From: a phage
DNA: 64,000 nt
Assembly: GCA_020773975.1 (NCBI GenBank)
Contig: GCA_020773975.1_3638.1
Strand: one strand, 5' to 3'
How positions within the stretch are numbered: the stretch's first letter is position 1; every line of letters starts with the position of its first letter. Below the pieces are notes generated by a model that was given only the letters and a program-made list of their open reading frames with translations, was not told where the DNA came from and did no database searches. The translations under genes and the position numbers were made by a program. Shown piece after piece: positions 15,334-58,596 of the stretch.

Positions 15334-16056
15334 TTATCCACCAGCCCTCCTAAAATCATTATATAGGAATACAGCTTTGGCAAATCCTCTTGGGGTTAAC
15401 GATCTTATAACCTTTGTCTTTTTTGATTTACCACCCAATTTTAGGTGCTGCTCAGAATACCCGCTTACCACGGGAACAGGTAATTTCTCAGGCATCCTAA
15501 AACCATTGCCTGTCCACAAACAAGTCCTCTTAGGGTAGGCATCTCTGGGTTTTATGTATTCTGGAAAAAACGGATGAACATCATTCTCTGATAGATACCC
15601 GCCGTACTCATAAGGATGAAATGAATGATCTGGTTTACGCCACAGAGAAGATAGAACACTAACAGGATTTTCTATCATGTAAGGGCAGTCGTATTCATCT
15701 GCCAACCTTGCTGCCACCTTTGCTGTATTTACAGCCTTTATCTGGAATAAAGGGTCTTTTGCAGCTTTTCTTGCGAAATGCGCTGCACCACTAACAGCCA
15801 TGTCAGTACATGGTGGAGATGCGAATATAATACTTGGCTTACAGATCCCTATCTCTGTTGGGTTAAACTGGTCATCTATCCAAACATTAATGTATTCTAT
15901 ATTTTTATGTTTTACTCGGATACTTTCATAACCGCCGTGATCAGCGCCATCATAGTTAAGGCATATTACTTTGTACCCATTCTTTGCCCACTCATAACCC
16001 ATGATGCCTGATCCGTCAAACATGTACAAAACCGTATCACTCAATACACCTCCCAT
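15334..16056 (-). CDS. DNA (cytosine-5)-methyltransferase-like protein
   Basis: Motif I MFDGSGIMG (FxGxG), motif IV ASPPCTD (PC), motif VI MIENPV (ENV); compact 240 aa; 3' end overlaps a 63-aa ORF (15192-15383) so a C-terminal frameshift is possible. Confidence 0.5.
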   Translation of the reverse strand: MGGVLSDTVLYMFDGSGIMGYEWAKNGYKVICLNYDGADHGGYESIRVKHKNIEYINVWIDDQFNPTEIGICKPSIIFASPPCTDMAVSGAAHFARKAAKDPLFQIKAVNTAKVAARLADEYDCPYMIENPVSVLSSLWRKPDHSFHPYEYGGYLSENDVHPFFPEYIKPRDAYPKRTCLWTGNGFRMPEKLPVPVVSGYSEQHLKLGGKSKKTKVIRSLTPRGFAKAVFLYNDFRRAGG

Positions 16057-16102
16057 ACCAGAAAACAGGCCCGTAATGTGGGCCTTTTGAGTACACTAGA
16101 AA

Positions 16103-16324
16103 TCAATGCAATGCTGTATGGACAGGAGTTCCATCTGCACCGTATGGAATGTCTTGCACTTGGGAATGCTTTCTCACTAAAGTATACACCAGCCAACCTT
16201 CAGCTTCATGCTGTCCTGCAATGTCATAGCCATCATCAAGAAGTTCAGCCAGTTTGCTCTCTACTTCTTCTCTTTTTGTTTTGCTAATTTTGAACTCAAT
16301 GAGTTTAACAGTGTTTTTAACCAT
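16103..16324 (-). CDS. hypothetical protein
   Basis: ORF-track ORF in co-directional array. Confidence 0.4.
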   Translation of the reverse strand: MVKNTVKLIEFKISKTKREEVESKLAELLDDGYDIAGQHEAEGWLVYTLVRKHSQVQDIPYGADGTPVHTALH

Positions 16325-16328
16325 AATT

Positions 16329-16613
16329 CTAGAAACCTTCTTCTCTATTGTAACACCCGTTTATCTCTAGATCTCTTAGGTATTCTCTTAAATGATGGTA
16401 TAGCACATCATCTGGAATGTCAAGATAGATTTGCTTACCGTTTTTGAATACAGCGCAATATTCCAGTTCCTGAAAACCGTTGTAATCCCAGTCGCTTTCT
16501 TTACTGAAGAAGTCAGGTTTTTGAACAGAAAATAGAGCTTCGACAACCACCAATCCGCAATCCTCATGGTCGTATTCGAACTCAATGTCTACCATAGGGG
16601 ATTTGCTATTCAT
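16329..16613 (-). CDS. hypothetical protein
   Basis: ORF-track ORF in co-directional array. Confidence 0.45.
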   Translation of the reverse strand: MNSKSPMVDIEFEYDHEDCGLVVVEALFSVQKPDFFSKESDWDYNGFQELEYCAVFKNGKQIYLDIPDDVLYHHLREYLRDLEINGCYNREEGF

Positions 16614-17080
16614 ACTCCCCCCAACTCTTGTTTTAACTCAATATTTTCTTTTAACAGGGCATCCACAAAAGCTAATATGTGAACAAGAGAACTATGACAA
16701 CCATTAGCATATAGTTCGGCTTCTACACGCTTTTTCAATTCTGCGCCATAGCCGCCTAAGTTGTCGAGATGCTCTTTAATTTTATCATAAGCATCTCGTT
16801 TTCCTCTTAGCTCATTAATAATGTACAGAACATTATCTGGGCTTGCGGTGGCAATGTAACTGGCATCGTAGTCATTTTGCCAGTGAGATAAATTCCCGGT
16901 TCCCTCATGTCTCTTTGCCGGACCCATTTTAGGATCTGTGATGAAAACAGTTTCTATTTTATTATCATTTTGGAATGATACCATTGCATGTCCATGGCTA
17001 TCTATCCACCAGTGCCCTCTGGTGGCTTTCTTTGCCAGTTTCTCAATATCTCCGATTAAGATATCAGCTTTTGTCTGCAT
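16610..17080 (-). CDS. hypothetical protein
   Basis: 156 aa; overlapping stop/start with neighbours. Confidence 0.5.
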   Translation of the reverse strand: MQTKADILIGDIEKLAKKATRGHWWIDSHGHAMVSFQNDNKIETVFITDPKMGPAKRHEGTGNLSHWQNDYDASYIATASPDNVLYIINELRGKRDAYDKIKEHLDNLGGYGAELKKRVEAELYANGCHSSLVHILAFVDALLKENIELKQELGGV

Positions 17081-17390
17081 TGATATCCTCCTTCTTCAAG
17101 ACTAAACTTGCTCTTGAGATCTCAGAAGAAACATACTCTATGTGACTAATCACATATGTCGTTACTTCGCTTCCATCGCCAAAAATATTATCAAGATCTA
17201 CGATAACAAGATCACCATTCTCCGGTTTTTCTACATCCTCGGATAAGATGATAACAGCTTCTGCAACCTCACCAGATTGGTTGAGACGCAGTGTAATATC
17301 GTGACCATTACCCCTATACTTAGTAAAATCAAAAACTTTTTCTGCTTTTTGGTGTGGTGGGAAAAACCACTTAAAGAGCTTCTTCAACAT
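17064..17390 (-). CDS. hypothetical protein
   Basis: ORF-track ORF in co-directional array. Confidence 0.45.
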   Translation of the reverse strand: MLKKLFKWFFPPHQKAEKVFDFTKYRGNGHDITLRLNQSGEVAEAVIILSEDVEKPENGDLVIVDLDNIFGDGSEVTTYVISHIEYVSSEISRASLVLKKEDINADKS

Positions 17391-17545
17391 TCATTCGCTC
17401 CTTAATTTCATTTAGGATGTCTTCGTATCGCTGCCACGACTCTTCGGCAGACAACTTTGCTTCAAGAAAGTTGTCTCGTGCAACATCTCGTAATTTCAAC
17501 AATTTCTCAGTTGAAACTTGACTCAAATCTGTAAAGTCTTCGACT

Positions 17546-17917
17546 TTAAACATCTTTATTTTCCTTAAAGTAGTTAAACAGATCAGTGATCTTCTCTTCC
17601 ACACCTTTATAGAAGAGATACTTTGTGTCTGCCATACGAGAATTATATGCGTCTTGGCCTTTTTCTTGTAACCAAAAGAACGCCTGTGCAAACTCACCCT
17701 CTCTAAGGGTAGGGTCATATTCAAACCCTATTCGTTTACATGCTTGCAAACACTGAAAGATAAGAACATCCAATGAGTTTATTACATGTGCAGCTATCTC
17801 AACATCCCTTGCCATACGATGCTCTCCTTTTGCAGAGAGTTCTTTAGAAATCTCTATGAGTCTGCTGTAATTCTCTTCTGCCGCTGTCTTTGCTCTTTTG
17901 CTTGTAGATGTGCTCAT
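17546..17917 (-). CDS. hypothetical protein
   Basis: 123 aa; the overlapping ORF 17371-17724 most likely starts at an internal Met (MFKVEDF...) just downstream. Confidence 0.45.
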   Translation of the reverse strand: MSTSTSKRAKTAAEENYSRLIEISKELSAKGEHRMARDVEIAAHVINSLDVLIFQCLQACKRIGFEYDPTLREGEFAQAFFWLQEKGQDAYNSRMADTKYLFYKGVEEKITDLFNYFKENKDV

Positions 17918-17919
17918 AA

Positions 17920-18345
17920 TCAGTCCTCGAACTTAATCCAACGCTTCTGGGATTTGATCTGCCCTCGTTCACCTTTACCTTTCAAACGCTGGACAGCCAC
18001 CTGTTGTACAATTTTACTCCGTAAAGCAAAGCTGATAGCGTCAGGAGCTAAAACACGAGCTTTACAAACACAATTATTATGAAGTGACACAGCATCTTCA
18101 AAAGACAGGTTTAAAGGGTGTTTTTCAGAACCCCAAACACGATAATATCCAAAACGACCATCCTTAACATCTGGGTAGTTAGGTAGTAAACGAGGTGCAT
18201 ATCCTAATGCAGCCATCATTTCATCAACCGATGCCATCTGGATATGTGTGGTGTCTTTACCATGATGAGATTCTTTATTATCCCACCAACCCTTTAATTC
18301 AGCTTTAAATTTCTTCAAAAGTTCACTTTTTGAATATGAGGTCAT
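17920..18345 (-). CDS. hypothetical protein
   Basis: ORF-track ORF in co-directional array. Confidence 0.5.
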   Translation of the reverse strand: MTSYSKSELLKKFKAELKGWWDNKESHHGKDTTHIQMASVDEMMAALGYAPRLLPNYPDVKDGRFGYYRVWGSEKHPLNLSFEDAVSLHNNCVCKARVLAPDAISFALRSKIVQQVAVQRLKGKGERGQIKSQKRWIKFED

Positions 18346-18355
18346 CAGCTATCTC

Positions 18356-19660
18356 CTACTTACCAGGGAAAGTCTCTTCATAAAACTTAACAAGACGTTG
18401 ATCAACGATAATATCTTTATCCCTGATCCTACGTAATAACCTTAATCCTTTTGCACTTGTTGCTCTGCTAAAAGCCACGTATGCCATGCCTGGTGCAAAA
18501 GTCCCATTGCCAAAGTCAACATTAACTTCCGGTAATGTTAATCCTTGTGCTTTGTGTATTGTAACAGCCCACCCAAGACGAATCGGCAAAGCCCTGTACT
18601 CACCAATGATAATCTTCTCAATTTCTTCAGTTATTGTACCATCTGGGTTTTTCACCTTTATGGGGTTATACTCAACATTTTCCCACACATAAGGTTCTAC
18701 GTCAACAATATCACCATTCTCAAGGCGGACTTTAACACTGTATTTACGTAGTTCAACAATCTCCCCACGGGAACCATTCACATAACTTGGTTCATCCAGA
18801 CCTCTGGGGTCATTGACAGTAATCATCACCTGCGCCCCCTCTTTCAGATATAACTCTTCAGGTACAGGTGTCTGGTTAAATTGCCCTGTCTTTTTTGCCT
18901 TGTAAACTGTTGGGATTCCAGGTATTGCATCAAAACGTTTTTTGTTTATTTTGTCTGCTGCCGCGTTTGTTGAGGTTATTGTTATAGCATCCAAGGGTTT
19001 TCCCATGTTGTAGCAATAAGTATTCATAAACTCAACAATCTCTGGAATACGCTCTCCCTTGCGAAGGCAATTAAGAAGTGTTGAAAAATGAACACTACTT
19101 TGCCTGTATATTTTATCAAGAAATACAGGATATGGGTTCAATTCTTTCCATGTTTTAGAAAAGCAACAAAGTTCTGTGTCGTGGAACTGGTAGTAGATCT
19201 CTTTTTCTTCACCTTTCAAAACAGGTGGATTCTGTAAGAAATCCCCGAACATGCACACCTGCAAACCACCGAAAGGCTCTTTAGGTTTTTTACGTGCCAG
19301 ACGACATTTCATGTCCATTTCCCAAAGTTTGTCTGCCCTGAACATACTTATCTCTTCAATAATAAGAATCTTCAGTGCTTTACTTTTAAGCAACTTCTTA
19401 GCCTTTGCCTTTATCTCTTCTGCATCTTTTTTAGTGGACACGCCTAATGAAAGTCCGAAAGCTCTGTGTGCCGTCATACCATCCACATTAATGGCAGCAG
19501 CCCCTGTAGGGGCCACTGTCAAGACTGAACCTGCGTATAAGGATTGGATAGTTTTTATGGTATGGCTCTTTCCAGCACCTGCATAACCACTGATAAACAC
19601 ATTTTCACCGGACATTATAGCGCCAAGAGCTTCTTCAACGCCAACCCCGTATTGAGACAT
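18356..19660 (-). CDS. SF1B DNA helicase (Dda/RecD/Pif1-like)
   Basis: Walker A GYAGAGKSHT; C-terminal motif AVTIHKAQGLTLPEV and YVAFSRA typical of Dda/RecD-type helicases. Confidence 0.8.
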   Translation of the reverse strand: MSQYGVGVEEALGAIMSGENVFISGYAGAGKSHTIKTIQSLYAGSVLTVAPTGAAAINVDGMTAHRAFGLSLGVSTKKDAEEIKAKAKKLLKSKALKILIIEEISMFRADKLWEMDMKCRLARKKPKEPFGGLQVCMFGDFLQNPPVLKGEEKEIYYQFHDTELCCFSKTWKELNPYPVFLDKIYRQSSVHFSTLLNCLRKGERIPEIVEFMNTYCYNMGKPLDAITITSTNAAADKINKKRFDAIPGIPTVYKAKKTGQFNQTPVPEELYLKEGAQVMITVNDPRGLDEPSYVNGSRGEIVELRKYSVKVRLENGDIVDVEPYVWENVEYNPIKVKNPDGTITEEIEKIIIGEYRALPIRLGWAVTIHKAQGLTLPEVNVDFGNGTFAPGMAYVAFSRATSAKGLRLLRRIRDKDIIVDQRLVKFYEETFPGK

Positions 19661-20634
19661 CAGTCCTCCTTAGATTCTTGTAGATAAATCTCTTCAAGAA
19701 TTTTACCCTGTACACCAATGACAATAATATCTGGTGCACCTGCTGGTTTTGGTGTTCCTGTCAGAACTTCATAACGACAGCAACGGCATTTTTTCTGGTT
19801 ATAGTCATAAGGGACACTGACAATATCTGCCGGATCCACAGATACTTCTACAAGTGCCCTTGAAGTCTTCTCAAAGGTAGCGGCATAGTCAATAGATGCA
19901 ACATGCAAACCTTGGCTACATGTTCTATTGGGATTATCCTCAACCATATTACGTGGCATGGAAATCACTTGCCCTTTATAATTAGGAACTTTACCTGTAT
20001 GACAATCTCGTGGGCCATCTACAGTTATCTTAATTTTCTTGTATGCCTTAATATTTCCGTTTTCAAGGATCTCAAGATCATTATGTTTTACAAAATCATA
20101 AAGCATTTTAACAGAAGCATACGACGGGTTGTGTAGCAACTTCTGCATGAATTTGACATATCGTTCGTCAAAGCAATCATTCTCAATATCTTTAATGATT
20201 CGTTTAGCAATACTGCTTTCCTGTTTTTGACCGTGCCAATATAAAACGTTATCTATCAATACTAAATTATCACCAAAATCAATGGTCTTTTTCTTTTCTG
20301 CTTCTTTCTCTTCCAAAATACGTTGTACAGCAGCATCTATTCCTCCTGTCCAAAGGATAACACCAACTTCTTTGAAGATGGGGCTGCTACTATTTAGAGT
20401 ATATTGTTCACCATTTAACAAAGTGATATGGATATTGTCTTGGGTAACAAGGACAATTGGTTGTGCAAGAGTATGCACTGGCTTCATAATACCTACAGGA
20501 TCTTCCTTAGCCTTTTTGGTTGTCGGCATTCCTTTTTTGGGTGCAACTGTCCAGCGTTTAAGAACATTTAGACCACGATCAACAACCACCATATTATTTT
20601 TCTTAGCGTATTCACGAGCTTCACGACGTGACAT
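19660..20634 (-). CDS. rIIB: rIIB-like protein
   Basis: C-terminal region PRNMVEDNPNRTCSQGLHVAS...VSVPYDYNQKKCRCCRYEV matches the T4 rIIB C-terminus as recalled; lies directly downstream of the rIIA-like gene; first in-frame ATG at 20634 (ORF-track start 20673 is TTG). Confidence 0.7.
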   Translation of the reverse strand: MSRREAREYAKKNNMVVVDRGLNVLKRWTVAPKKGMPTTKKAKEDPVGIMKPVHTLAQPIVLVTQDNIHITLLNGEQYTLNSSSPIFKEVGVILWTGGIDAAVQRILEEKEAEKKKTIDFGDNLVLIDNVLYWHGQKQESSIAKRIIKDIENDCFDERYVKFMQKLLHNPSYASVKMLYDFVKHNDLEILENGNIKAYKKIKITVDGPRDCHTGKVPNYKGQVISMPRNMVEDNPNRTCSQGLHVASIDYAATFEKTSRALVEVSVDPADIVSVPYDYNQKKCRCCRYEVLTGTPKPAGAPDIIVIGVQGKILEEIYLQESKED

Positions 20635-20644
20635 GAATAAAGGA

Positions 20645-22657
20645 TTACTCACCTTTTTCTCCTTTGCTGTCAATAAATTTACGATACTCTAGCATCTCTG
20701 GAGTATTGAAATGCCTAATATTAATGTATTTTAACAATGGGTAACGATCTTTCTTAATCTGTAGTAGCTTTTTCCCAATTCTCTTCTTGGCCTCTATCAT
20801 CCTTAATGCTTTCTCACGACTATCTTCGTAGCCAGGAACTGACCAATAACTGGGTATGTTTACCTTCATCTCCCATTTTGGGAAACTAGCTACCATCACA
20901 CCAAAATAGCTAAGCTCTTTAACAATGTTATGATACTCATGATCTTTCCCCACTTCTTGATATAAATGATATTCAAGAAGGTTAGTTTTTGCAAGAGCAT
21001 GAATATCCTCCTCAGTTATAACCCGTGCCTCATCTGGCAGCCAACTTGATCTGTTTAAAGGCACAATATATAACTTACCAGCTACACCAAGATTCTTAAG
21101 AAATGTTGGTGGTTGCTTTCTCCAAGATGTTCTAAGATTTGTTCTAAGATTGGAAACGTATCCTAACGGGCATAATCCTTTCACCTGCCCACCCCAGTAG
21201 ACCATAGCCGCCTCAATATCTTCAAACTGAGCACGGGAAATGCGGGTTACATCTACGGAGCCATCTTGGTTGATTATCCAAACTTTATGACCCGGTTCGT
21301 AATAACCATAGCCACCATACTTTTTATCTGCTTTTTGCACTGGTCGTTTTTCAAGTTCAGATAACTTGAAAATCATCCCTTCAAAGAATTTATCACTGTA
21401 TAAGGACAGAGCGTAATCAGCATCGGTTATAAATGATCTCTTACCAAACTTCTCTGCGAGCCAGTTACATTTAGAGCGCACATACTTGTGATCATCATTG
21501 TAAACCAGTGGATGACCATTCATCAACTCTGCGTATGAATATCTCTCATCCTTACCACGGCGTGATCCTTCGCCACCATATGTTTCACAGTAATCTATGT
21601 AAGAACCATCAGTATAATTCTTGAACTTATTTGCAATAAAAGCAGCACCGTACTTTGTAGCGAAGTACCCGCCAATAAACTTCATATGATCAAGAACTGC
21701 TTTTAACGTTGGCAGATCGCTTAATTCTTTTGTGATTTCTTCTCCGCGAAGTCGGATAGCTTTCGTCACAAAACTTTCAAGTTTATCACGAAATCCCCCG
21801 TCATTCTTTCCTTCTACTGTCCACTCCCTGCCAGGATCTACATTACAATCCCCAATAGGGATAGATACCGTCATCATAGGCAGTTCTTTGCGAGTAGAGA
21901 GATAATCAGAGAGATATGGTTGTTGCCCCATGATGACAACACTATCAGCGTTTCTTGAAATGCTACTATACATCTCAAGAACCCAGCCAGTCTCCTCATC
22001 CTCATACCGATACTGAACAGGATAAGTGCGATCTTCAATCTGAGTTTTAACAAAAGGATCGTTAATAATATATGGGAATTTGGCATAACGAAGGCATTTT
22101 ACAATAGCCTGTCGATAAGCTCCTGTTTCCCAAGTGTTTACGTTAAATTTAACCTCTACACCATTCTCCTCTGTTGTTTCACAACAGAATAAAGGTACAA
22201 CCTCTGGTATTCCGCTGTTTTTGTGAACAGAGTATGTTGTTTTCACTCCATCTTTAACAGAAACAACTGTGAACATATCTGTTACTGCAAGAGGCGCTTT
22301 TGACCCAATACCTTTCGCGCCAATCAGATCATTACTGTTTCTTTTTGTGGACTTACCAATCATCATGAATGTACGTGTTACCATCTCATGATCCATACCT
22401 AACCCTGTATCCTTAACAGAATACCAAGGTTCCAAGTCTGTTGGTGAGTGGATGATGATGGGTTTATCAGAACACCCTGCCTCTGTATGAGCATCTACAG
22501 CGTTGAAGAGAGGCTCTCGTACTGCTGCCAAAGGTTTATCTTTATAAATTCCATCGATAAGAATACTGAAAGTCTCAGGATTCATTGCAATTGATGCTTG
22601 GTATCTTTCTACGTTCCCAGTTACCTGAACTTTGTTGTCAGATCTTTGAATAATCAT
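20645..22657 (-). CDS. rIIA: rIIA-like protein with N-terminal GHKL ATPase fold
   Basis: Bergerat-fold motifs FNAVDAH, VKDTGLGMD, IGAKGIGSKA in the N-terminal 130 aa; 670 aa; followed by rIIB-like gene. Confidence 0.7.
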   Translation of the reverse strand: MIIQRSDNKVQVTGNVERYQASIAMNPETFSILIDGIYKDKPLAAVREPLFNAVDAHTEAGCSDKPIIIHSPTDLEPWYSVKDTGLGMDHEMVTRTFMMIGKSTKRNSNDLIGAKGIGSKAPLAVTDMFTVVSVKDGVKTTYSVHKNSGIPEVVPLFCCETTEENGVEVKFNVNTWETGAYRQAIVKCLRYAKFPYIINDPFVKTQIEDRTYPVQYRYEDEETGWVLEMYSSISRNADSVVIMGQQPYLSDYLSTRKELPMMTVSIPIGDCNVDPGREWTVEGKNDGGFRDKLESFVTKAIRLRGEEITKELSDLPTLKAVLDHMKFIGGYFATKYGAAFIANKFKNYTDGSYIDYCETYGGEGSRRGKDERYSYAELMNGHPLVYNDDHKYVRSKCNWLAEKFGKRSFITDADYALSLYSDKFFEGMIFKLSELEKRPVQKADKKYGGYGYYEPGHKVWIINQDGSVDVTRISRAQFEDIEAAMVYWGGQVKGLCPLGYVSNLRTNLRTSWRKQPPTFLKNLGVAGKLYIVPLNRSSWLPDEARVITEEDIHALAKTNLLEYHLYQEVGKDHEYHNIVKELSYFGVMVASFPKWEMKVNIPSYWSVPGYEDSREKALRMIEAKKRIGKKLLQIKKDRYPLLKYINIRHFNTPEMLEYRKFIDSKGEKGE

Positions 22658-22677
22658 TCAATACCTCTATGAACTAA

Positions 22678-23223
22678 TTATGCGTCAGGATGCTTGTAAA
22701 AAATATGATTCCCAACCTTCACTGTTTTCACCATGACTTTTGCCCAAGATGGCCTAACAGTAGTTGCATGATAGTACGTTGCTGATTTTGTGTAGTCAAG
22801 AGCCTTGTATAAACTTTTGTGGTCTTTATGCAATCTCATCAAGATTTTAGCATAAAATTTAGCTCTTAACCACCTATCCTTTTCATAGACTTTAAAGGAT
22901 TGCCCACCGAATGTCCAAGAGAATTGCCCCGGCTGGTAAACTACTTTCTTGATAGTATGCGGGAAATTCTTGTCATCTTTTCTATTCAATGTGACAAAAG
23001 CGACACCCATCATTCCATAATCACCTTCTCCTCTTCCCTCTTTATACAAGTTACAGGCAAGAATATTAAGCTCTGTATCATTCTTCTTGCAAATGTGAAG
23101 AACTTGGGGCTTCTTTGCACTTTCTTTGGCTAGAACAGGGGTAATAGACAGAGAAAGTGCACAGCAAACTGCAAATAATAAAGATCTTATTTTCAAAACT
23201 AACTCCAGACAAATAAGCCCCAT
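22678..23223 (-). CDS. secreted cell-wall hydrolase (SleB/CwlJ-like)
   Basis: Signal peptide-like N-terminus (SLLFAVCCALSLSITPVLA) from the first ATG at 23223; motif NLYKEGRGEGDYGMMGVAFVTLNRK as in SleB-family hydrolases. Confidence 0.6.
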   Translation of the reverse strand: MGLICLELVLKIRSLLFAVCCALSLSITPVLAKESAKKPQVLHICKKNDTELNILACNLYKEGRGEGDYGMMGVAFVTLNRKDDKNFPHTIKKVVYQPGQFSWTFGGQSFKVYEKDRWLRAKFYAKILMRLHKDHKSLYKALDYTKSATYYHATTVRPSWAKVMVKTVKVGNHIFYKHPDA

Positions 23224-23237
23224 AAAGGGGCTTTCTG

Positions 23238-26600: not shown

Positions 26601-26640
26601 TCAGGTATTCCTGGGAAAAGCAGCCATTAGGCTGCTGTTA

Positions 26641-28434: not shown

Positions 28435-28435
28435 T

Positions 28436-28630: not shown

Positions 28631-28631
28631 C

Positions 28632-30267: not shown

Positions 30268-31083
30268 GTGACAGAGATATTCTGTATGAACTGGAATGAA
30301 GAGTTTACAACCAAAGAGATAAGGTATCTCAAAACACGACTCTTTTTCAAAAAGAGGAATACCAAAGCGAGAGGTATAGAGTTTAATCTGACAGAAGATG
30401 ACTGGTTTATGATGGGCAACGGATTACTTGGGAAAGGTGTTTGTGATTACACAGGCCTACCTTTTTCTGCAACACCTAATGACCCCCTCTACCCGTCTGT
30501 TGAACGAATAGATGACAAAAAAGGGTATGTTCGTGGAAACGTTTGTGTAGTCGGTAAGAGAGCAAACCAGTTAAAAGATTTTCTTGTAGACAAAAAGAAA
30601 GCTCTAACGATTGTAGATCCACTCGACATGGATATCGTCCAAGGAATGATGTTAAATATGTCAAAGGATCACTTGGAAAAGTTAAAACTTAAATACATAC
30701 CTACGGAAACAGATATGAAAGAGACAGAGAACGTAATTATTGATGAGCAGGTTGAAGAGATGAAAGAAAAATCTCTTCCTGACGATGTTGAAATTGCACT
30801 TGCATACGCAAACTACTGTAAAACATTTGCGGAAGCAGGTATGAATGTTAGCGTTACTTATGCACAATTTAAAGCTAAATATTCAAGAAACACCTGTTCT
30901 CTAACAGGGGAGAAGTTAACAAAAACACCAAAACCTATTCTCATTATGGATTTAGATCTTGGGTTCGCAAAAGACAACTTTATTATTGTTTCTGAAAAGA
31001 TGGAAACAGCATTAACACAACTCATGATCAATACGAAAATGAGTTTACCAAAAATTACAGCTATGCTGAACAAGGTGGTTTAA
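30268..31083 (+). CDS. hypothetical protein with two repeated domains, possible HNH-like endonuclease (tentative)
   Basis: ORF-track start is GTG; first ATG at 30286; motif PSVERIDDKKGYVRGNVCVVGKRAN recalls endonuclease/DNA-binding modules. Confidence 0.35.
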   Translation: MTEIFCMNWNEEFTTKEIRYLKTRLFFKKRNTKARGIEFNLTEDDWFMMGNGLLGKGVCDYTGLPFSATPNDPLYPSVERIDDKKGYVRGNVCVVGKRANQLKDFLVDKKKALTIVDPLDMDIVQGMMLNMSKDHLEKLKLKYIPTETDMKETENVIIDEQVEEMKEKSLPDDVEIALAYANYCKTFAEAGMNVSVTYAQFKAKYSRNTCSLTGEKLTKTPKPILIMDLDLGFAKDNFIIVSEKMETALTQLMINTKMSLPKITAMLNKVV

Positions 31084-31271
31084 TGAAAGATTCTCTACCA
31101 AAACCGTGTCCGTTTTGTAAAAATGATGCACTTCTGCTTAAACAATCACGCTCTGGTCAAACAATATTTCACTACATTTACTGCCAGAAATGTGGAACAT
31201 CTGGGCCACAGGCTCTGAGTGAGCCTACTGCTGTAAGTTGGTGGAATGTCGGTAATAAAGAGGTAAAATAA
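31083..31271 (+). CDS. Lar-family restriction alleviation protein (Zn ribbon)
   Basis: 62 aa; KPCPFC ... CQKCGTSGP ... AVSWWN matches the Lar-family pattern CPFCG...C..CG..GP...A...WN. Confidence 0.55.
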   Translation: MKDSLPKPCPFCKNDALLLKQSRSGQTIFHYIYCQKCGTSGPQALSEPTAVSWWNVGNKEVK

Positions 31272-48660: not shown

Positions 48661-48663
48661 CTC

Positions 48664-50619: not shown

Positions 50620-50621
50620 AA

Positions 50622-51069: not shown

Positions 51070-51270
51070 CTACATCCTCCACGTTAGTTTCTGAGCGATC
51101 TCTAACAAAGCATCTATCTTGTGTATATACTCTTTCCTTTTCTCACTGCCAGGAGGGAATTGGTCTCTCGTTTGCATCAAGGTTTTTATCTCTTCAGACA
51201 GATGATTAAGGATTTCAACGCGCTCACGTTTTCGACCTAGTTGTTCAATTTCTTTATCACTACAATTCAT
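51070..51270 (-). CDS. hypothetical protein
   Basis: 66-aa ORF. Confidence 0.4.
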   Translation of the reverse strand: MNCSDKEIEQLGRKRERVEILNHLSEEIKTLMQTRDQFPPGSEKRKEYIHKIDALLEIAQKLTWRM

Positions 51271-51283
51271 AACACACCCTACA

Positions 51284-51631
51284 GTGTTGTCAAACTATGA
51301 GAGTATGATAATATATGGTGCAACAACTTACAATAGCAGGAGACAATTTATGACTGTGAAAATACCTAAAGGCGGCAGACCAGATAGAAATGCATGTGAC
51401 ATGCGTGTAAGGGTAGGGAGAATGTGTCTAATTTATGGAATAACTTATCCACCAATGGTGCGACTTAATGGTAAAATATGTAAGGTCATCGACATACCAA
51501 AAGATAGAACAACACGCTTCTTGTGCAAGGTCAAAGGTGAAGAGAAGGTTTTTAACATCTCACACAAAAACCTAACAGTTTTGGATCTTAATGACAACAT
51601 TGTTATCTCCAAATACCGTTGTATAAACTAA
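51284..51631 (+). CDS. hypothetical protein (lone plus-strand ORF)
   Basis: Ends immediately before the bidirectional terminator; likely starts at the internal ATG (MTVKIPKGGRP...). Confidence 0.35.
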   Translation: MLSNYESMIIYGATTYNSRRQFMTVKIPKGGRPDRNACDMRVRVGRMCLIYGITYPPMVRLNGKICKVIDIPKDRTTRFLCKVKGEEKVFNISHKNLTVLDLNDNIVISKYRCIN

Positions 51632-51632
51632 A

Positions 51633-51665
51633 ATAAAAGCCCCGCATGGGGCTTTTATTTTTATT
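51633..51665. terminator. bidirectional rho-independent terminator
   Basis: AAATAAAAGCCCCGCATGGGGCTTTTATTTTTATT: GC stem flanked by an A-run and a T-run, between convergent ORFs. Confidence 0.7.
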
Positions 51666-52401
51666 CAAAATCATCAACACCGCTATCGGTAAGGTTTTCT
51701 CTGCTCGAAGGTTTTGTCGAAAGAACTTGCTCAAGCAGAGAGGAAAATTTCTGCAAATTACTTACAGAAGAAGTCCCTGCTGCCATGGCAAGCATATCCA
51801 CTTCTTTTTCGGTAGGTTGCGTCCAGTCTAGAAACATCTCTTTCATGTACAACGTTGATATCCCTATTGGTGTGGCGTGGTCAACCCTATCAGTACGGAC
51901 CCAGAAAAGAACTTCTTTCTCTATACATACACACAAAGCAGCACCCAACGAGTATCCTGTAACGATGGATGGATAACTTGCAACGAGGATCTCGACATTC
52001 AGGTCATCCCAGTGAAATACAACACCCAAACACTTCATATCCACAATGTCTTCCACTGCGGGTCTTAGCTCCTCATGGGAAGAAAGGGAGTCATAGTTAA
52101 TATTCTTTATGAATTTAAGAACGTCTTGGCGGTTGTAGGCACAATCGTTATTACCTTGCTTCCAGTAGCCCCAAAATGAAGTCGATAAATTCAACCAAAA
52201 ACTTGCAGTTGTCCCTAATGTCTCAGCCAGTTTTTCAGCCACATCTTCTGATACTTCTTCCATGTTATATAGGATAGTTCTTAACTTATTTACAGGTATA
52301 CCAGATCTGTCGGCAAGATCATCCACACACCAACCTAATGGATCCAGATATTCGTGGATAATAACCTCCCCTGGTGACACTGGTGCTCTTTCTTTCTGCA
52401 T
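51661..52401 (-). CDS. HigA/XRE-family HTH protein fused to a C-terminal domain of unknown function
   Basis: From ATG 52401 (AAGGAG SD): PGEVIIHEYLDPLGWCVDDLADRSGIPVNKLRTILYNMEEVSEDVAEKLAETLGTTASFWLNL matches the HigA antitoxin HTH pattern; about 170 further residues with no recognisable motif. Confidence 0.6.
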   Translation of the reverse strand: MQKERAPVSPGEVIIHEYLDPLGWCVDDLADRSGIPVNKLRTILYNMEEVSEDVAEKLAETLGTTASFWLNLSTSFWGYWKQGNNDCAYNRQDVLKFIKNINYDSLSSHEELRPAVEDIVDMKCLGVVFHWDDLNVEILVASYPSIVTGYSLGAALCVCIEKEVLFWVRTDRVDHATPIGISTLYMKEMFLDWTQPTEKEVDMLAMAAGTSSVSNLQKFSSLLEQVLSTKPSSRENLTDSGVDDFE

Positions 52402-52421
52402 TCTCTCTCCTTTCTCTCTAC

Positions 52422-52448
52422 CAGAAAACCCTGCAAAGCAGGGTTTTG
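52422..52448 (-). promoter_or_regulatory. hairpin just upstream of the HigA-like gene (terminator/attenuator-like)
   Basis: Minus strand AACCCTGC-TTTG-CAGGGTT followed by TTCTGG; sits between the upstream stop and the SD. Confidence 0.4.
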
Positions 52449-52454
52449 TTACTA

Positions 52455-52658
52455 TCAGCATTTAGGCGAGCATTTATCGCACGGGCATGAAATTCCGTGG
52501 AAACACAAACCTGTTCCGTCTTTCTTGACCCCTGTTCCACCACATTGGGGACAACTATCGTGTAAGCATTTTGTTTTTGTTGTCTCCTCTTTATCTTTAT
52601 TAAAGAGGTTTTTCATAATCATTTTCTGTTGCTCAATCGTAAACATTTTCGTCCCCAA
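52455..52658 (-). CDS. small Cys-rich (Zn-ribbon-like) protein
   Basis: CLHDSCPQCGG ... CFHGISCPCDKCSPKC. Confidence 0.45.
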   Translation of the reverse strand: MGTKMFTIEQQKMIMKNLFNKDKEETTKTKCLHDSCPQCGGTGVKKDGTGLCFHGISCPCDKCSPKC

Positions 52659-52827
52659 AATCTTTCAAGTGCTTCTACCTCTCCCATGTTTGGGAAGATA
52701 CCACAGAGACTTTTATAGCCTCTTTAATACTTTTATCCCACTGATGCGCCATTTACAGGCTTTTAAGTACCCACTACTATTGTAAAAGCCTACTCTCCGA
52801 AAGATACTGGTGAGGAACTTTTTATTT

Positions 52828-53133
52828 TTACGAATAATCTTCTTTTTCACTCAAAAACCTCGTTTCTTCAAACTGCTCTGGTGTCAATAAACTTGTTCCT
52901 ACACGACTGCCATTACCACACATAATGGGCACGGCAATCATGTGGCTATCCTTTTCTGCATTAGCTGTATCAAGGTACTGCCCATAACGTTTGATAAGTC
53001 GGATACTCATTTTTGAATTAGCTAAAGCCCTTGTATTATAGAGATAATCCTCAATGTACAAACGCAATGCGTTTGCGGATTTTAAGGATTTCGATAAGAA
53101 TAATTTATTACGCCGTACCAGTTTTTTCTTCAT
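52828..53133 (-). CDS. hypothetical protein
   Basis: 101-aa ORF. Confidence 0.45.
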   Translation of the reverse strand: MKKKLVRRNKLFLSKSLKSANALRLYIEDYLYNTRALANSKMSIRLIKRYGQYLDTANAEKDSHMIAVPIMCGNGSRVGTSLLTPEQFEETRFLSEKEDYS

Positions 53134-53326
53134 GCAACCCTCGCTTGTGCCTGTACATTGCTAGGGGCCATACAGAACTCACTATAAAGCATTTCCATGC
53201 CCAACCCCATGCAGTTTTTGGTGCATATACCTGCTCAAGTATTTTACTATTCTCCATCTCTGCGGTATGTACAAACCATACAGCAATATACAATGTAACT
53301 ATAATGTAGATAAAGCCATTAATCAT
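53108..53326 (-). CDS. small membrane protein
   Basis: 72 aa, two hydrophobic segments. Confidence 0.35.
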   Translation of the reverse strand: MINGFIYIIVTLYIAVWFVHTAEMENSKILEQVYAPKTAWGWAWKCFIVSSVWPLAMYRHKRGLHEEKTGTA

Positions 53327-54380
53327 TCATCTTATCCCAACACATTTGTTGTGCTGTCATCAAAACATCGGCAGCAAAGTTAAGATCTGTTGTTTTCGGT
53401 AAATGCGTGTTCTTGTACAGAGTGTTACGAATATAATCATCCTTCTCTTCTGCCCAAGCCAAGAGCTTCTCCAAAGACCATGCGCCATTCCTGATTGCAA
53501 GAAGCTCCTGAGCATCAGGTCTTTTTACTAAGACTTTCCCTTCCGTCAGGATTTCTTCCGCTTGACGCATCAGCCTAACCAAGTGCATACCATGCTTTGA
53601 ATCGAAGCCATACTTTTCTTCTAACTCATGACGTGCTGGGTTTCTGTTTTCAACCCATGTCCAGTAGTTCTTATGCTTTTCCTTTGCTTGTTTATGCTCA
53701 TCTGCCAGATATTTAACGATTAAAATTGGCTTACGTTTCTTATCTTCGTCAGAGAACTGCTCGTATGGAACTTTACGAATAGAACCATCAGAGTTAAACA
53801 AACCAGCATTGTCGCGTGTTCCGATTACACCATAGATATTATCACCCATGGGTAAAAAGACACACAACTTGTTAAGATCATCCAACATTTTCTGGAAGTC
53901 TTTGTGTTTTGTAAGATTATCATCCATCCACGAGTGTGTCAAGCGCATGAACTCTTTTTGTGTTGGTTGCTCTTTAGGCTGCGGGTTATTAATCCATTTA
54001 TTATGGCCTTTGATACGCTTCAGTTGCGCCATCGCATACCCAGAAAAAGTAAAAGCAACTTTACTGGATAGGAGTTTTGGCGCTTGCTCGCGTAGGTACT
54101 CGTAAACATCTGAAGTTTGCAGAATGTCACTTCTATCAACAAACATAAGCTCGATGATGTTTGGGTTCATATCAACGAACAACTTCATGTAGTTTGTTAG
54201 CTCATACAGCTTACCATCCTCTTCATCAATAAGAGTCATTTCTCTGTCAACGAAAAACGGGGTAAGAATGCTTTTAGGCTCTGCACAATAAATTCCGCGA
54301 ATATCCACATCGGATGTTGGTAAGTTAGTTCCATAGGCAATGCTACCACTGTAGCAGCGCATTAGTTCTAGTTTCTTCAT
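53319..54380 (-). CDS. nucleotidyltransferase-fold protein (Pol-beta-like NTase superfamily)
   Basis: GSIAYGTNLPTSDVDIRGIY = GS...G...SDxD signature of the minimal nucleotidyltransferase fold; 353 aa. Confidence 0.55.
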   Translation of the reverse strand: MKKLELMRCYSGSIAYGTNLPTSDVDIRGIYCAEPKSILTPFFVDREMTLIDEEDGKLYELTNYMKLFVDMNPNIIELMFVDRSDILQTSDVYEYLREQAPKLLSSKVAFTFSGYAMAQLKRIKGHNKWINNPQPKEQPTQKEFMRLTHSWMDDNLTKHKDFQKMLDDLNKLCVFLPMGDNIYGVIGTRDNAGLFNSDGSIRKVPYEQFSDEDKKRKPILIVKYLADEHKQAKEKHKNYWTWVENRNPARHELEEKYGFDSKHGMHLVRLMRQAEEILTEGKVLVKRPDAQELLAIRNGAWSLEKLLAWAEEKDDYIRNTLYKNTHLPKTTDLNFAADVLMTAQQMCWDKMND

Positions 54381-54757
54381 TCTTGTACCTTTGTGCTTTT
54401 TCTTACATTATCCCAAAAATCAAGGATATTTTGGTAACGGATTTTGTCTTCCATATATTCAGCTTCATCCCGAAGATCGCACACATGTTCTATTAAGGCA
54501 CACACTTCATTGTGGTATGTTGTATCACTTGTGATGTGCTTAATCATACAAGATCCTGCTTTCCACTTTGAAAGTGAGTATCTCAGATTATCATCTTTCT
54601 CTGTTGGAAAAGCATCAACTAGCACCTTTGCCCTATTCCCTTGTATCGTTTGTATTGTTCCTTGGCGCAACTCGTTTCCACCCCAATAGATAAACACAGT
54701 ATCACCAACAAATAATCTAGTTCCACTTGCGTCTCTCATTTTATGCCTCCAACCCAA
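54377..54757 (-). CDS. hypothetical protein
   Basis: 126-aa ORF, ATGA overlap with the downstream gene. Confidence 0.45.
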   Translation of the reverse strand: MGWRHKMRDASGTRLFVGDTVFIYWGGNELRQGTIQTIQGNRAKVLVDAFPTEKDDNLRYSLSKWKAGSCMIKHITSDTTYHNEVCALIEHVCDLRDEAEYMEDKIRYQNILDFWDNVRKSTKVQE

Positions 54758-55085
54758 AGAAATAATAAATTGTTACCGCTGCAAAGTAAAGTGTTTTGGA
54801 AATCAGCCGTAACCAACAATCTCTGTTTGTATACACTTTTCCTGCTAAGATATTACTACCTGTTACGATATGTCCCCACACCCACACACCAAACAGGAAT
54901 CCTCCTAGCAAACCCCCTGTTGGTGGTGTTAATGTGGTAATCATTGCAATACCTTCTAGGATGGTGAATATGAAGAAATATGAGAATGCCTCTCTTACAC
55001 ATTTTATTCCTTTGCCAGTAACGCAGGTATTGACTAAACCTATAAGACAAAAGATCGTCCAAAGTACATACAATGTATAAACCAT
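54741..55085 (-). CDS. integral membrane protein
   Basis: Four predicted TM helices. Confidence 0.45.
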   Translation of the reverse strand: MVYTLYVLWTIFCLIGLVNTCVTGKGIKCVREAFSYFFIFTILEGIAMITTLTPPTGGLLGGFLFGVWVWGHIVTGSNILAGKVYTNRDCWLRLISKTLYFAAVTIYYFFGLEA

Positions 55086-55150
55086 AAACCACTTAACCCC
55101 GAGAATGTTAACCTCTCCAACCCTATCAGAGAGGTTTCAGAAATGATCTG

Positions 55151-55561
55151 TTACTCACCTTTCAGCTTAAAACTTTTCAATGTTTTGATAAAGTTTTTCT
55201 CTGCTGGTGTGTAAGTGTGAACGAAACCTGTTTCTTCACAGGTGTAGGTATCATTAACCTCCATTGCGTGTGGAGGGATAAATGCACCATCAGGAACAGA
55301 CTTATATTCCGGGTTGTAGATAAATTCCGGCAGTACAACAGCTACAGCAGTCATTGCTCCGTTCAAGGCTTTCTTTTCTTCACGCCACCACGCTACTGGG
55401 TAAGTCTCTAAAGACATTGCCTGGGTAAGAAAATCTTCAAGCACGGACTGATAACCGCCATTCAAAACAATAATGGTCTTATCTTCTTCTTTCCAGCATT
55501 TCAGCCAATGGTGTGCAGTGATCTGCTCTGGTGTATATGCTTCACCACTATGCAAAACCAT
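55151..55561 (-). CDS. hypothetical protein, possibly PTH2 (peptidyl-tRNA hydrolase 2)-like; 5' end uncertain
   Basis: The 27 in-frame codons upstream of the ATG encode ...YISGIHAGIQSAHAIAEL (cf. the PTH2 motif GK.AAQC.HAA) with no ATG/GTG/TTG; downstream WLKCWKEEDKTIIVLN also recalls PTH2; weak. Confidence 0.4.
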   Translation of the reverse strand: MVLHSGEAYTPEQITAHHWLKCWKEEDKTIIVLNGGYQSVLEDFLTQAMSLETYPVAWWREEKKALNGAMTAVAVVLPEFIYNPEYKSVPDGAFIPPHAMEVNDTYTCEETGFVHTYTPAEKNFIKTLKSFKLKGE

Positions 55562-55639
55562 AAGCTCTGCAATGGCGTGTGCTGATTGGATACCCGCATG
55601 GATACCGGAGATATATTGATTAACAATACATTCTTGTTT

Positions 55640-55858
55640 TCATTTTTGTTTTTTCCTCAGAATTATTCTATCTTCACTAAAAATTTCCTGTAACCCAGCA
55701 GCAATCAGAGCAAATATTGCTACCCACCATACAACTAACAGGAGTGCCCCAACAAGCAAATCTCTACCTGTGATCTGTTGCTCAATCCTGTAGGTAAAAA
55801 TAAAGAAAGCTACGGATACTAAAGCACCAACAAAGAAGTAGATAAACACTTCAGTCAT
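55640..55858 (-). CDS. small membrane protein
   Basis: 72 aa, two TM helices; in frame with 55151-55561 across a single TGA. Confidence 0.4.
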   Translation of the reverse strand: MTEVFIYFFVGALVSVAFFIFTYRIEQQITGRDLLVGALLLVVWWVAIFALIAAGLQEIFSEDRIILRKKQK

Positions 55859-56186
55859 TATCTCTTTTCTCCAAATCCCGTTTCTCCAAGTATCCTTTTA
55901 CCATAAGTGCTACAGCGTAAATCCCCACAAGACAAATACAAAATGTGAAAATAATAGGTAAAACCATTACCGCAAACATCATAAATAGCGGTCCTGCAAC
56001 AGTAATGAATGCTTCTCCAAGCAACAGCAAAAATACTACATATTTATTTGCCGTCTCATCCACCTTCTTAAGATACACACCTAAACACACAGAAGACAAC
56101 AGGAATGACAGAATGGACAGCAATAGATACCAATTATCAATAAAGATGATAATTGGACCAGCAACATTTTCTAACCACCACATCAT
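55851..56186 (-). CDS. integral membrane protein
   Basis: 111 aa, three TM helices. Confidence 0.45.
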   Translation of the reverse strand: MMWWLENVAGPIIIFIDNWYLLLSILSFLLSSVCLGVYLKKVDETANKYVVFLLLLGEAFITVAGPLFMMFAVMVLPIIFTFCICLVGIYAVALMVKGYLEKRDLEKRDND

Positions 56187-56200
56187 ATATACTTACCTCT

Positions 56201-57445
56201 TTAGAATAACATATCTCTGCTGATTGCTTTACGAATAGCATCAATACGGGCTACTCGCACAGCTTCACCAATCTCTTTACCCTTCTTACCCTTTTCCAGA
56301 AGGGGTTTTGTTATAGCTTTAGAATCAACTTTTGTCATAGCGTCGTAGGCTTCCAACAAAAAATGACCTTGAAGATAAGGTTTATGTCTAAAATCACCAC
56401 CTCTTCCTTTAGCATCACAATAACACGCATCTGCAAGTGTGTAAACCTTCATTTTCTGGTCAGCTTGTCCAGCAGCTTCAAATATTTTCATGATGCTTTT
56501 TGGTTTCAAACCGTTGTTACCATCTCTGGGAGAGATGGTGTGCACTTTTGTGTGATTTTCTGCAACATATTTTGCCGTGTCACGATAGATATTATAAATC
56601 TTCAACCTTTCACACAAGGATTGGATAACATCTACCCCAGCTTTCTCATGACCATGAAGATTACCATTGTCCTTGTAAGTTATAGCTTTGCCAAAATCAT
56701 GGCACAGCACAGCAAACTTGGTCAGTGGATCAGCTTCTAATTCATCAGCAACCCGTAACGCTAGAATTGTATGGGTGTAAGCATCCCCCTCTGGGTGATG
56801 TTCTTTAGGTTGTTGCACACGACGTAGGGCTTCCAGTTCAGGAAGTTCGCCAATACGTCCCATATTGACAGCAAAAGACCTGAAATAACCACTCTTTAAG
56901 GCTTTCAACATTTCCTTCCATTTACGATAGGCGCTTATTTCTGCCAAAGAGTGTCGGTTGTCATAAGCCAGTTTAAAAGTTTCTGGATGGATATGCCATT
57001 CTTCCCCAAGCTGGGCTTTAAATCTAAACAGGCGTAGAATACGTAATGGATCTTCAATAAACGCCTCCGATGTATGACGTAATGTTTTAAGTCCTAAGTC
57101 AACCTGACCACCAAAAGGATCAATAATCTCACCACTGTCAACATCCATCGCCATGGAGTTGATGGTAAGATCTCTACGTGCCAAATCCTCTTCCAGAGTT
57201 ACATCTGGACTAAAGCATACCTCAAATCCTTTATGGCCTTCGCCTGTTTTTCTTTCTGTGCGTGCAAGAGCGTACTCTTCTTTTGTTTCTGGGTGAAGAT
57301 AAACTGGAAAAGATGCGCCAACTTGTGTGAACCCTCTTTTCAGCATCTCTTCATGCGTAGCACCAACAACCACATAATCACGGTCTGATATTTCACGACC
57401 TAACAATTTATCTCTTACTGCGCCACCTACCAAGTATACCTTCAT
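56201..57445 (-). CDS. cca: tRNA nucleotidyltransferase (CCA-adding enzyme) with HD domain
   Basis: From ATG 57445: MKVYLVGGAVRDKLLG...DRDYVVVG (class II CCA motif, cf. E. coli Cca MKIYLVGGAVRD as recalled), RRDLTINSMA, HD motif VLCHDFGK; about 415 aa. Confidence 0.8.
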   Translation of the reverse strand: MKVYLVGGAVRDKLLGREISDRDYVVVGATHEEMLKRGFTQVGASFPVYLHPETKEEYALARTERKTGEGHKGFEVCFSPDVTLEEDLARRDLTINSMAMDVDSGEIIDPFGGQVDLGLKTLRHTSEAFIEDPLRILRLFRFKAQLGEEWHIHPETFKLAYDNRHSLAEISAYRKWKEMLKALKSGYFRSFAVNMGRIGELPELEALRRVQQPKEHHPEGDAYTHTILALRVADELEADPLTKFAVLCHDFGKAITYKDNGNLHGHEKAGVDVIQSLCERLKIYNIYRDTAKYVAENHTKVHTISPRDGNNGLKPKSIMKIFEAAGQADQKMKVYTLADACYCDAKGRGGDFRHKPYLQGHFLLEAYDAMTKVDSKAITKPLLEKGKKGKEIGEAVRVARIDAIRKAISRDMLF

Positions 57446-57768
57446 TTCTTCGCCCACGTATTCATATAATTAACAATATCTTTTACGGTTCTCTTTCCGT
57501 CCAGTGGATAAACCATGTCATCGCTCATCCCACCGTGTTTTAGCATTGCTACCAGTCTAGTATATACCTCTTTTGGTCTTTTGCAAGTTCTTTTCTTCCA
57601 TTTATGACCGTCTGGGAAGTACTCCTTATCTTCAAGAGAGATATGAAGGATGTCCCCTATAAACTCTTTAGCCTGTGTGCTGTAAAGTGGACGGTGGAAT
57701 ATGTAGAATTTCATTGCTTGCTCCTTTGTTGTAATAACAATATCAGTGCAAGCCACCTGTGTCAACAC
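57442..57768 (-). CDS. hypothetical protein
   Basis: ATGA overlap with cca. Confidence 0.4.
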   Translation of the reverse strand: MLTQVACTDIVITTKEQAMKFYIFHRPLYSTQAKEFIGDILHISLEDKEYFPDGHKWKKRTCKRPKEVYTRLVAMLKHGGMSDDMVYPLDGKRTVKDIVNYMNTWAKK

Positions 57769-57803
57769 ATAAAGAAAAACCCGCTAAAAAGCGGGTTAAT
57801 CTC

Positions 57804-58085
57804 TTACCATGTTACAAATATGTTTATAGATGTGCCTTGTTTTGTTGGTCGATAGCTAATAATATCTACCGTGAAGCCACCACCACGAAGATCGCCAACA
57901 ATATGAGGCAGGTAATCACCCATTTCCTCCGGGAACTGTAGTGACATACCCATTCCAAATAGACCTTTCTTTGCACATTGGCTGATCCCGTTTACTATCT
58001 GGTCGTACAGTTCCACCAGAGATTTTGGGGTATCCTTTTTCGACTTGTTCGCTATCTCTCTCATTTTGCTGGCGACATTTGCCAT
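57804..58085 (-). CDS. hypothetical protein
   Basis: 93-aa ORF; overlaps the 3' 170 nt of the MTase ORF in another frame. Confidence 0.35.
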   Translation of the reverse strand: MANVASKMREIANKSKKDTPKSLVELYDQIVNGISQCAKKGLFGMGMSLQFPEEMGDYLPHIVGDLRGGGFTVDIISYRPTKQGTSINIFVTW

Positions 58086-58596
58086 CTTTACCTCTTAAAA
58101 AATAGAAAGGCTTCAAATTAAGGGTGTTCTTTTTGTCCCACACATACCATGCATACCCGCTCCCATCGGTTTTACCATCCTCTGTAAAAGATGGTCTTTG
58201 AGAAAGTACAAGCAGAGATGTTGGGGGATTATCTTGCCACCACTCCCACCTTTTCATACTTTCAAGAAAACCAAGACGTAGAAGCATGATAACGACATCA
58301 GCATCACGTAGAGCTTTCTCAACAAATTCTTGAGCCAGTGAGTATGGGGGGTTAGAGATTATGATGTCTGTGTGATTATACTCTGTTGTCAGATAATCAA
58401 CACCTTGACGTATTTCTCCCCAAGCACTTCCAATAGGTAGAAAATTGTAGATCCTACCAGAAGCCCTGCAAGGCTCCATATATTTCTTTTTCATATCTAT
58501 AGGGATAACTTCCAACAGGGCTTCAACAGCCCACACTGGTGTTTCATATGTGTCGTATTCTCTTCGCTCACCCTTCTTTTTCAGCGGAGCTGCCAT
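57916..58596 (-). CDS. DNA N6-adenine methyltransferase
   Basis: Motif I-like EPCRASGRI and motif IV DIIISNPPY; first ATG at 58596; the low-complexity C-terminal tail past about 58085 may not be real. Confidence 0.6.
   Translation of the reverse strand: MAAPLKKKGERREYDTYETPVWAVEALLEVIPIDMKKKYMEPCRASGRIYNFLPIGSAWGEIRQGVDYLTTEYNHTDIIISNPPYSLAQEFVEKALRDADVVIMLLRLGFLESMKRWEWWQDNPPTSLLVLSQRPSFTEDGKTDGSGYAWYVWDKKNTLNLKPFYFLRGKDGKCRQQNERDSEQVEKGYPKISGGTVRPDSKRDQPMCKERSIWNGYVTTVPGGNG

Follow-up and report, generated by a model that had tools for sequence, protein, structure and literature searches.

Two phage DNA methyltransferases known as retron triggers are close family members of enzymes encoded by the DNA analysed here, a 64,000-nucleotide stretch of a phage contig (GCA_020773975.1_3638.1; hereafter the window) that carries genes for a compact C5 cytosine methyltransferase, an NPPY-type N6-adenine methyltransferase and a Lar-family zinc-ribbon protein. 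The first described trigger comes from phage K42 (KarlJaspers/Bas06-type). Escape mutants of K42 selected by retron Ec86 all disrupt a 711-bp dcm gene, and its product, K42 Dcm, triggers the retron, forms 5-methylcytosine (5mC) and methylates a CCWGG site in the multicopy single-stranded DNA (msDNA), with a C82A/E128A/K175A/K176A variant as the mutant control when toxicity and 5mC were assayed (bioRxiv 10.1101/2023.08.16.553469). The second comes from Bas51 (WalterGehring, MZ501111), whose DNA was found by nanopore sequencing to carry N6-methyladenine (m6A) at GATC. A T83P mutant of its small N6-adenine methylase loses this mark, D69G and D79G are likewise escape mutations in that enzyme, and the enzyme triggers retrons Asa1/Squ1 and is toxic when expressed (PMC12548924). 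For the third family, the founding member from Rac has two descriptions: Lar, a restriction alleviator (King & Murray 1995, cited in PMC4041452), and RalR, a toxin with non-specific DNase activity (PMC4041452).

The earlier note on this DNA had read the three genes as layered anti-restriction equipment. All three open reading frames (ORFs) are present where it placed them, the C5 and NPPY genes on the minus strand and the Lar-like gene on the plus strand. Taking the explanation as a whole, we consider it likely that the window encodes two orphan S-adenosylmethionine (SAM)-dependent DNA methyltransferases and one Lar-family zinc-ribbon protein, that all three belong to the ordinary accessory gene set of Vequintavirinae-type phages, and that any protection given by the methylases would be narrow and of the Dam/Dcm type. 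In a motif scan of all 247 window ORFs of at least 60 amino acids (aa), methyltransferase catalytic motifs were found only in the compact C5 and NPPY ORFs, and a PHROGs scan of 30 further window ORFs found no known anti-restriction family.

The compact C5 enzyme and its characterised relative

The compact Dcm-like C5 enzyme, encoded at 15334..16056 on the minus strand, has 240 residues, compared with about 330 for M.HhaI and M.HaeIII, and matches phrog_757 'DNA methyltransferase' (E 3e-85). Its gene is part of the replication module, where it sits between the helicase gene and the primase/helicase gene, just upstream of the latter, and it is an orphan with no nuclease gene adjacent. Both the presence of motifs I, IV and VI and the very short target-recognition region pointed out in the earlier note hold up on alignment. 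Among 53 sequences, the SAM-binding loop of motif I (FDGSG, residues 13–17) is nearly invariant, PPC of motif IV (81–83) and ENP of motif VI (129–131) are invariant, and a C-terminal block, LGGKS..TK.IRSL.PR, is invariant or nearly so. A separate target-recognition domain (TRD) between motifs VIII and IX is absent; about 26 residues (187–212) hold that position. The predicted structure has a C5-methyltransferase fold, with DNA C5 methylases as its best structural neighbours.

Short length is the normal state of this family and not a truncation, since the 120 matches listed from a homolog search that returned 4,630 proteins are all 219–259 aa long. By tblastn, the family occurs in 1,510 phage records, and its carriers include Drexlerviridae, Dhillonvirus, RB49-like phages, Vequintavirus, Phapecoctavirus and Certrevirus. 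The BASEL study labels it 'Dcm-like C5 cytosine methyltransferase'.

For comparison with K42 Dcm, we used bas06_0055 of Bas06 (711 bp, 236 aa), a near-identical counterpart, as a stand-in for the K42 product. The window protein is 53% identical to it over 229 residues, and the K42 residues C82, E128, K175 and K176 align with C83, E129, K176 and R177 in the window. The two proteins share the compact architecture and the FDGSG, PPC, ENP, K/R pair and C-terminal LGGKS..TK.IRSLTPRGFA features, and both are encoded by orphan genes of lytic coliphages. They differ in their hosts' classification, Drexlerviridae siphovirus for K42/Bas06 and Vequintavirinae myovirus for the window, and in the segment at the TRD position, where window residues ~187–203 are identical at only 1 of 17 aligned positions. 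At that position the window protein instead has the version VSGYSxQH, which it has in common with the enzymes of the Vequintavirus phages Bas51 and Bas58.

This divergence bears on whether the compact protein makes 5mC in DNA at all. It could be that in this lineage it acts on RNA or single-stranded DNA, or transfers another group, and apart from the unrelated TRD-equivalent this would fit the absence of a Pfam match at E≤1 (PF00145 included), of any NCBIfam match and of a significant match among PDB chain sequences; precomputed PF00145 matches exist for a few members of the family. Against this stand the identity to an enzyme with demonstrated 5mC formation in DNA, the conservation of all catalytic motifs and of the K/R pair, the DNA C5 methylases among the closest structural neighbours, and the placement of the gene in a DNA replication module, and we hold such an activity to be highly improbable. 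The suspicion in the earlier note that the compact enzyme might not be a conventional DNA methylase is thus unsupported and runs against the K42 comparison. We infer from the shared sequence features a working Dcm-like 5mC DNA methylase with a minimal 26-residue target-recognition segment, which we regard as likely, and, by analogy with K42 Dcm, its target is probably CCWGG.

The N6-adenine methyltransferase and its overlapping tail

The second methyltransferase is a 226-aa ORF at 57916-58596 on the minus strand that matches phrog_799 'DNA methyltransferase' (E 4e-81). Its first 167 residues (58096..58596) form a catalytic core, and a C-terminal extension of about 59 residues follows (57916..58095, stop codon included). 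The NPPY-type assignment made in the earlier note is borne out: the ORF has NPPY at residues 82–85, EPCRASG at 41–47 and YETP at 17–20, so that motif IV and the SAM motif I are both present. Across 45 homologs, R11, D15, Y17, T19, N82, P83, P84, R116 and R134 are invariant within the core. Most homologs are only 166–180 aa long, and the family occurs in more than 560 records of the phage collection.

Profile scores for this protein fall below the cut-offs of PF05869 Dam (15.4 bits vs 28.1), PF13651 (15.4 vs 26.4) and TIGR01712 (13.4 vs 97), and nothing significant was found among PDB chain sequences. Because neither the C5 nor the N6-adenine protein has an above-threshold Pfam or NCBIfam match, the evidence for assigning both to their families comes from PHROGs, alignments of homologs, predicted folds and orthology. 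The AlphaFold2 model of the N6-adenine enzyme shows a class I SAM-methyltransferase fold, with a predicted local distance difference test (pLDDT) score mostly of 87–98 over residues 21–170. Foldseek matches to the model include type I HsdM subunits, M.BseCI, CamA and PacII (E 1e-5 to 4e-4), which makes gamma-type adenine methylases its fold neighbours as modelled; rRNA adenine dimethylases score similarly to adenine DNA methylases.

Two adenine methylases are annotated in Bas51, a 177-aa protein (bas51_0176) and a 441-aa DPPF-type protein (bas51_0070). The characterised GATC enzyme must be the small one, because D69, D79 and T83 are present in bas51_0176 and the corresponding residues of bas51_0070 are C, G and E; we rejected the larger protein for this reason. 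In Bas48 (4234-5559 of the retrieved stretch) and Bas51 (3457-4782), the gene for the 441-aa protein lies as a third methylase gene between the helicase and Dcm-like genes. It has no counterpart in the window, where the corresponding region is 16100-18350, and is missing from Bas58. The retron study also quantified m6A at GTAC in Bas51 (PMC12548924), and this might be the mark of the DPPF-type enzyme.

The window enzyme is a syntenic ortholog of bas51_0176. In the window as in Bas48 and Bas51, a ClpP-like protease gene is followed by the methylase gene and then by an ORF of about 94 aa, and across the 167-residue core the window protein is 59% identical to bas48_0176, which is itself near-identical to the Bas51 enzyme. 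The loss-of-function positions D69 and D79 of Bas51 are conserved as D67 and D77, and T83 corresponds to S81, directly before NPPY. By analogy with Bas51, the window enzyme is likely a Dam-like methylase that would place m6A at the GATC sites of both phage and host DNA in the course of an infection. GATC itself is not avoided in the window, with an observed-to-expected (O/E) ratio of 0.8–1.0 and ratios of 0.75–1.2 for GATC-containing hexamers; this is consistent with GATC as a protected site and is not proof of it.

The C-terminal extension runs in a different frame across the start of a conserved downstream gene of 93 codons (57804..58085, minus strand), overlapping its first 56 codons over 170 nt. 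That gene matches phrog_12158 (E 9e-19, residues 6–93) and phrog_15143 (E 7e-33), and its product is 40% identical to bas48_0175, whose gene overlaps the Bas48 methylase gene by only 4 nt. The tail is predicted to be disordered (pLDDT <50), and its identity between genera is 30–50%, compared with 81–83% for the core. Avunavirus, Seunavirus, Mydovirus and Salmonella phage R7 have this tail; Vequintavirus, with the 177-aa enzyme, does not. We considered chance read-through and rejected it: in each of three genera, only 0.04–0.1% of synonymous recodings of the overlapped gene leave the tail frame free of stops. Selection therefore appears to keep the frame open, which suggests that the tail is a maintained overprinted extension.

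Adjoining this region is a gene for a CCA-adding tRNA nucleotidyltransferase (56201-57457, minus strand). Despite its presence, ARAGORN found no tRNA genes in the 64-kb window.

The Lar-family protein, lost restriction sites and genomic setting

The Lar-like gene (31083..31271, plus strand) encodes 62 aa and is tightly packed between an HNH/Srd-like gene and a gene of 87 codons. Its product passes the gathering score of PF14354 Lar_restr_allev (36.1 bits vs 28.6; profile positions 4–57 of 58), has the CxxC...CxxC spacing and a C-terminal WWN, and matches phrog_599 (E 2.7e-11). It falls short of the TIGR03655 cut-off (37.1 bits vs 39.6) and of the RalR equivalog NF007260 (13.4 vs 113), and PDB chain sequences gave nothing significant. 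By tblastn, homologs occur in only 6 Avunavirus records, at 81–84% identity; one metagenomic homolog cluster was found in addition.

Compared with Rac Lar/RalR (64 aa), the window protein is 27% identical and shares the KPCPFC...CxxC zinc-ribbon spacing and the C-terminal W-N, but having missed both the equivalog and the TIGR03655 cut-offs it is not a RalR ortholog. The Lar-family label given in the earlier note thus stands at the level of the domain and goes no further. Because the Rac founding member is described as an alleviator and as a DNase toxin, the function of the family is itself ambiguous; going by the shared domain, the window protein may, like Rac Lar, weaken restriction by type I (EcoKI-family) systems.

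The gene directly upstream (30268-31083, plus strand), which overlaps the Lar-like gene by one base, matches phrog_3118 'HNH endonuclease' (E 4e-94) as well as PHROGs labelled 'decoy of host sigma70' and 'Srd anti-sigma factor', and has no Pfam match. Its public labels are inconsistent (anti-termination protein, anti-sigma factor, HNH endonuclease).

The strongest restriction-evasion signal in the window is its avoidance of palindromes, which was missed in the earlier note. Of 64 palindromic hexamers, 19 are completely absent from the 64 kb, whereas among the 1,988 non-palindromic hexamer pairs expected 12 times or more only 6 are missing. The missing sites include EcoRI GAATTC, HindIII AAGCTT, PstI CTGCAG, KpnI GGTACC, SacI GAGCTC, SalI GTCGAC, PvuII CAGCTG and that of AatII, each expected 4–21 times. 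The Vequintavirus Bas48 has kept 6 EcoRI, 21 HindIII and 31 PstI sites in 50 kb, so the avoidance pattern is specific to the lineage of the window.

By megablast, that lineage is the Avunavirus clade of Vequintavirinae. Escherichia phage Av-05 (NC_025830) and phages 18-1-2, 19-1-2, 24-2-1 and TH18 are 92–95% identical to the window at the nucleotide level, Av-05 at about 95%. All three genes have direct orthologs in Av-05: Av05_00139 and Av05_0071, both named 'DNA methyltransferase' in RefSeq, and a gene at 100398-100583 named 'Lar-like restriction alleviation protein', with amino-acid identities of 95%, 97% and 81%, respectively. The three genes are therefore already known and annotated in the nearest relative, and finding them here is largely ordinary. 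Our literature searches turned up neither methylomes nor restriction data for Av-05 or rV5.

Two differences from Av-05 concern the surroundings of the genes. The Lar-like and N6-adenine methylase genes are 27.5 kb apart in the window and about 60 kb apart (around the circle) in record NC_025830. The gene order of the window matches a joining of two contigs of phage 18-1-2, and TH18 (133,882 bp) is the exact sum of both; the differing spacing suggests that the public records differ by assembly or by rearrangement.

The second difference lies beside the C5 gene, in the primase/helicase ORF (12210-15182), where 324 residues (549–872; 12567-13538, minus strand) are cleanly inserted relative to the 99%-identical Av-05 ortholog. 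The insertion starts at LRG|C, with Cys, and finishes at ...FVTGN|S, with Asn and then Ser. It has no Pfam or PDB sequence match. It does match internal segments of phrog_32482 (PhoH-like, E 3e-60) and phrog_12229 (ribonucleotide reductase), which indicates that the same element sits in other host proteins. On these sequence features, it is a probable intein.

Restriction protection and its alternatives

If both enzymes act as their relatives do, they would reproduce the host Dam and Dcm marks, whatever the genotype of the host or the replication speed of the phage. Host Dam (GATC) and Dcm (CCWGG) make the very marks that the characterised orthologs write, so that the protection we infer is narrow at most. 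It would extend only to nucleases blocked by these marks, that is, DpnII/MboI-type and EcoRII-type enzymes and those with overlapping sites. Other restriction specificities would be unaffected by the methylases, and there the lineage would rely on the loss of palindromic hexamers.

In the BASEL study, Vequintavirinae were 'exceptionally susceptible' to restriction-modification (R-M) systems, and methyltransferase genes showed no pattern with restriction resistance in Drexlerviridae (PMC8594841). Yet both a Dcm-like gene and the gene for the small N6-adenine methylase are found in each of the Vequintavirus phages Bas48, Bas51 and Bas58. We apply this sensitivity to the window phage only with caution, because EcoRI, HindIII and PstI sites, lost from the window, are retained in Bas48, and the BASEL phenotypes are not transferable site for site.

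These data bear on a broad, layered arsenal in which the methylases would mask many sites and the Lar-like protein would disable type I systems. The three families are conventionally tied to restriction evasion, the 19 absent palindromes testify to strong selection by restriction enzymes, and the spread of the C5 and N6-adenine families over more than 1,500 and more than 560 records implies a selective benefit. Yet the characterised orthologs have single specificities of 4–5 bp identical to those of host Dam and Dcm, and the Lar-like protein misses the RalR and TIGR03655 cut-offs. Together with the susceptibility of Vequintavirinae that carry both methylases and the missing pattern in Drexlerviridae, this makes a broad arsenal improbable in our judgement. 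The overall interpretation in the earlier note is accordingly only partly supported: two orphan methylases and a Lar-family protein are there, and the layered anti-restriction built on them was overstated in view of the Dam/Dcm marks, the R-M susceptibility of Vequintavirinae and the triggering of retrons.

Several points also weigh against the narrower explanation that we prefer. Its experimental basis (m6A at GATC, 5mC at CCWGG, retron triggering) comes from relatives outside Avunavirus, and both window methylases fall short of every Pfam and NCBIfam cut-off. The N6-adenine enzyme is only 59% identical to that of Bas51, and at 226 aa, with its disordered tail, it differs from the 177-aa protein that was characterised. 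For the C5 enzyme, CCWGG specificity may not transfer, because so little of the segment equivalent to the TRD is shared with K42/Bas06. CCWGG occurs 54 times in the window, compared with 9 for GGWCC, which has the same composition; its Markov O/E ratio of 0.53 does not mark it as clearly protected, although such counts are weak evidence. With its different TRD-equivalent, the enzyme may have a recognition sequence or substrate other than duplex CCWGG, or may transfer another group, which we think unlikely. Finally, relatives with both methylases are highly sensitive to R-M systems, which leaves an anti-restriction benefit putative, with evasion of mismatch repair, packaging and regulation as possible other roles.

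These other roles could be the main ones. Dam has established roles in the packaging of phage P1 and in strand discrimination by MutH. Rapid and full GATC methylation of phage DNA could avert nicking of hemimethylated, replicating DNA by MutH and the mismatch-repair system, or time packaging or expression, as other phage Dam enzymes are known to do, and the Dcm-like mark could be regulatory or neutral. The usual host itself makes the marks that these specificities duplicate, the C5 gene belongs to the replication module, and relatives show no restriction phenotype in BASEL, all of which would suit a non-defensive function. GATC clusters suited to packaging or regulation did not turn up, but no search was aimed at them. 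We nevertheless consider it doubtful, if somewhat less so than a changed C5 target, that such functions dominate. The fitness cost of retron triggering and of the toxicity seen for Bas51 calls for a benefit, and protection on dam-/dcm- hosts or on hosts with cognate restriction is the simplest one.

The documented consequence of carrying both methylases, in the relatives, is retron triggering, together with toxicity for the Bas51 enzyme. By analogy, enzymes that mimic Dam and Dcm would be liabilities for the phage, because retrons sense them. Since both enzymes trigger retrons and one is toxic, their persistence needs a benefit, and a narrow one, in dam-/dcm- hosts or against methylation-sensitive nucleases directed at GATC or CCWGG, remains the most economical reason for it.

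As a discovery the three genes add little, because they are annotated in the nearest relative and experiments have already characterised close members of their families; their value is mainly corrective. One correction is that C5 enzymes of 240 aa with almost no TRD would count among working DNA methylases, as a family found in more than 1,500 phage genomes. Should the variant mini-TRD have another target, the family would provide a natural minimal scaffold in which the swap of a tiny loop re-programmes a C5 methyltransferase, and a new specificity of this kind would make it of interest for engineering small methyltransferases. In the lineage itself, restriction pressure has left a much stronger trace in the sites that have been lost than in the methylases.

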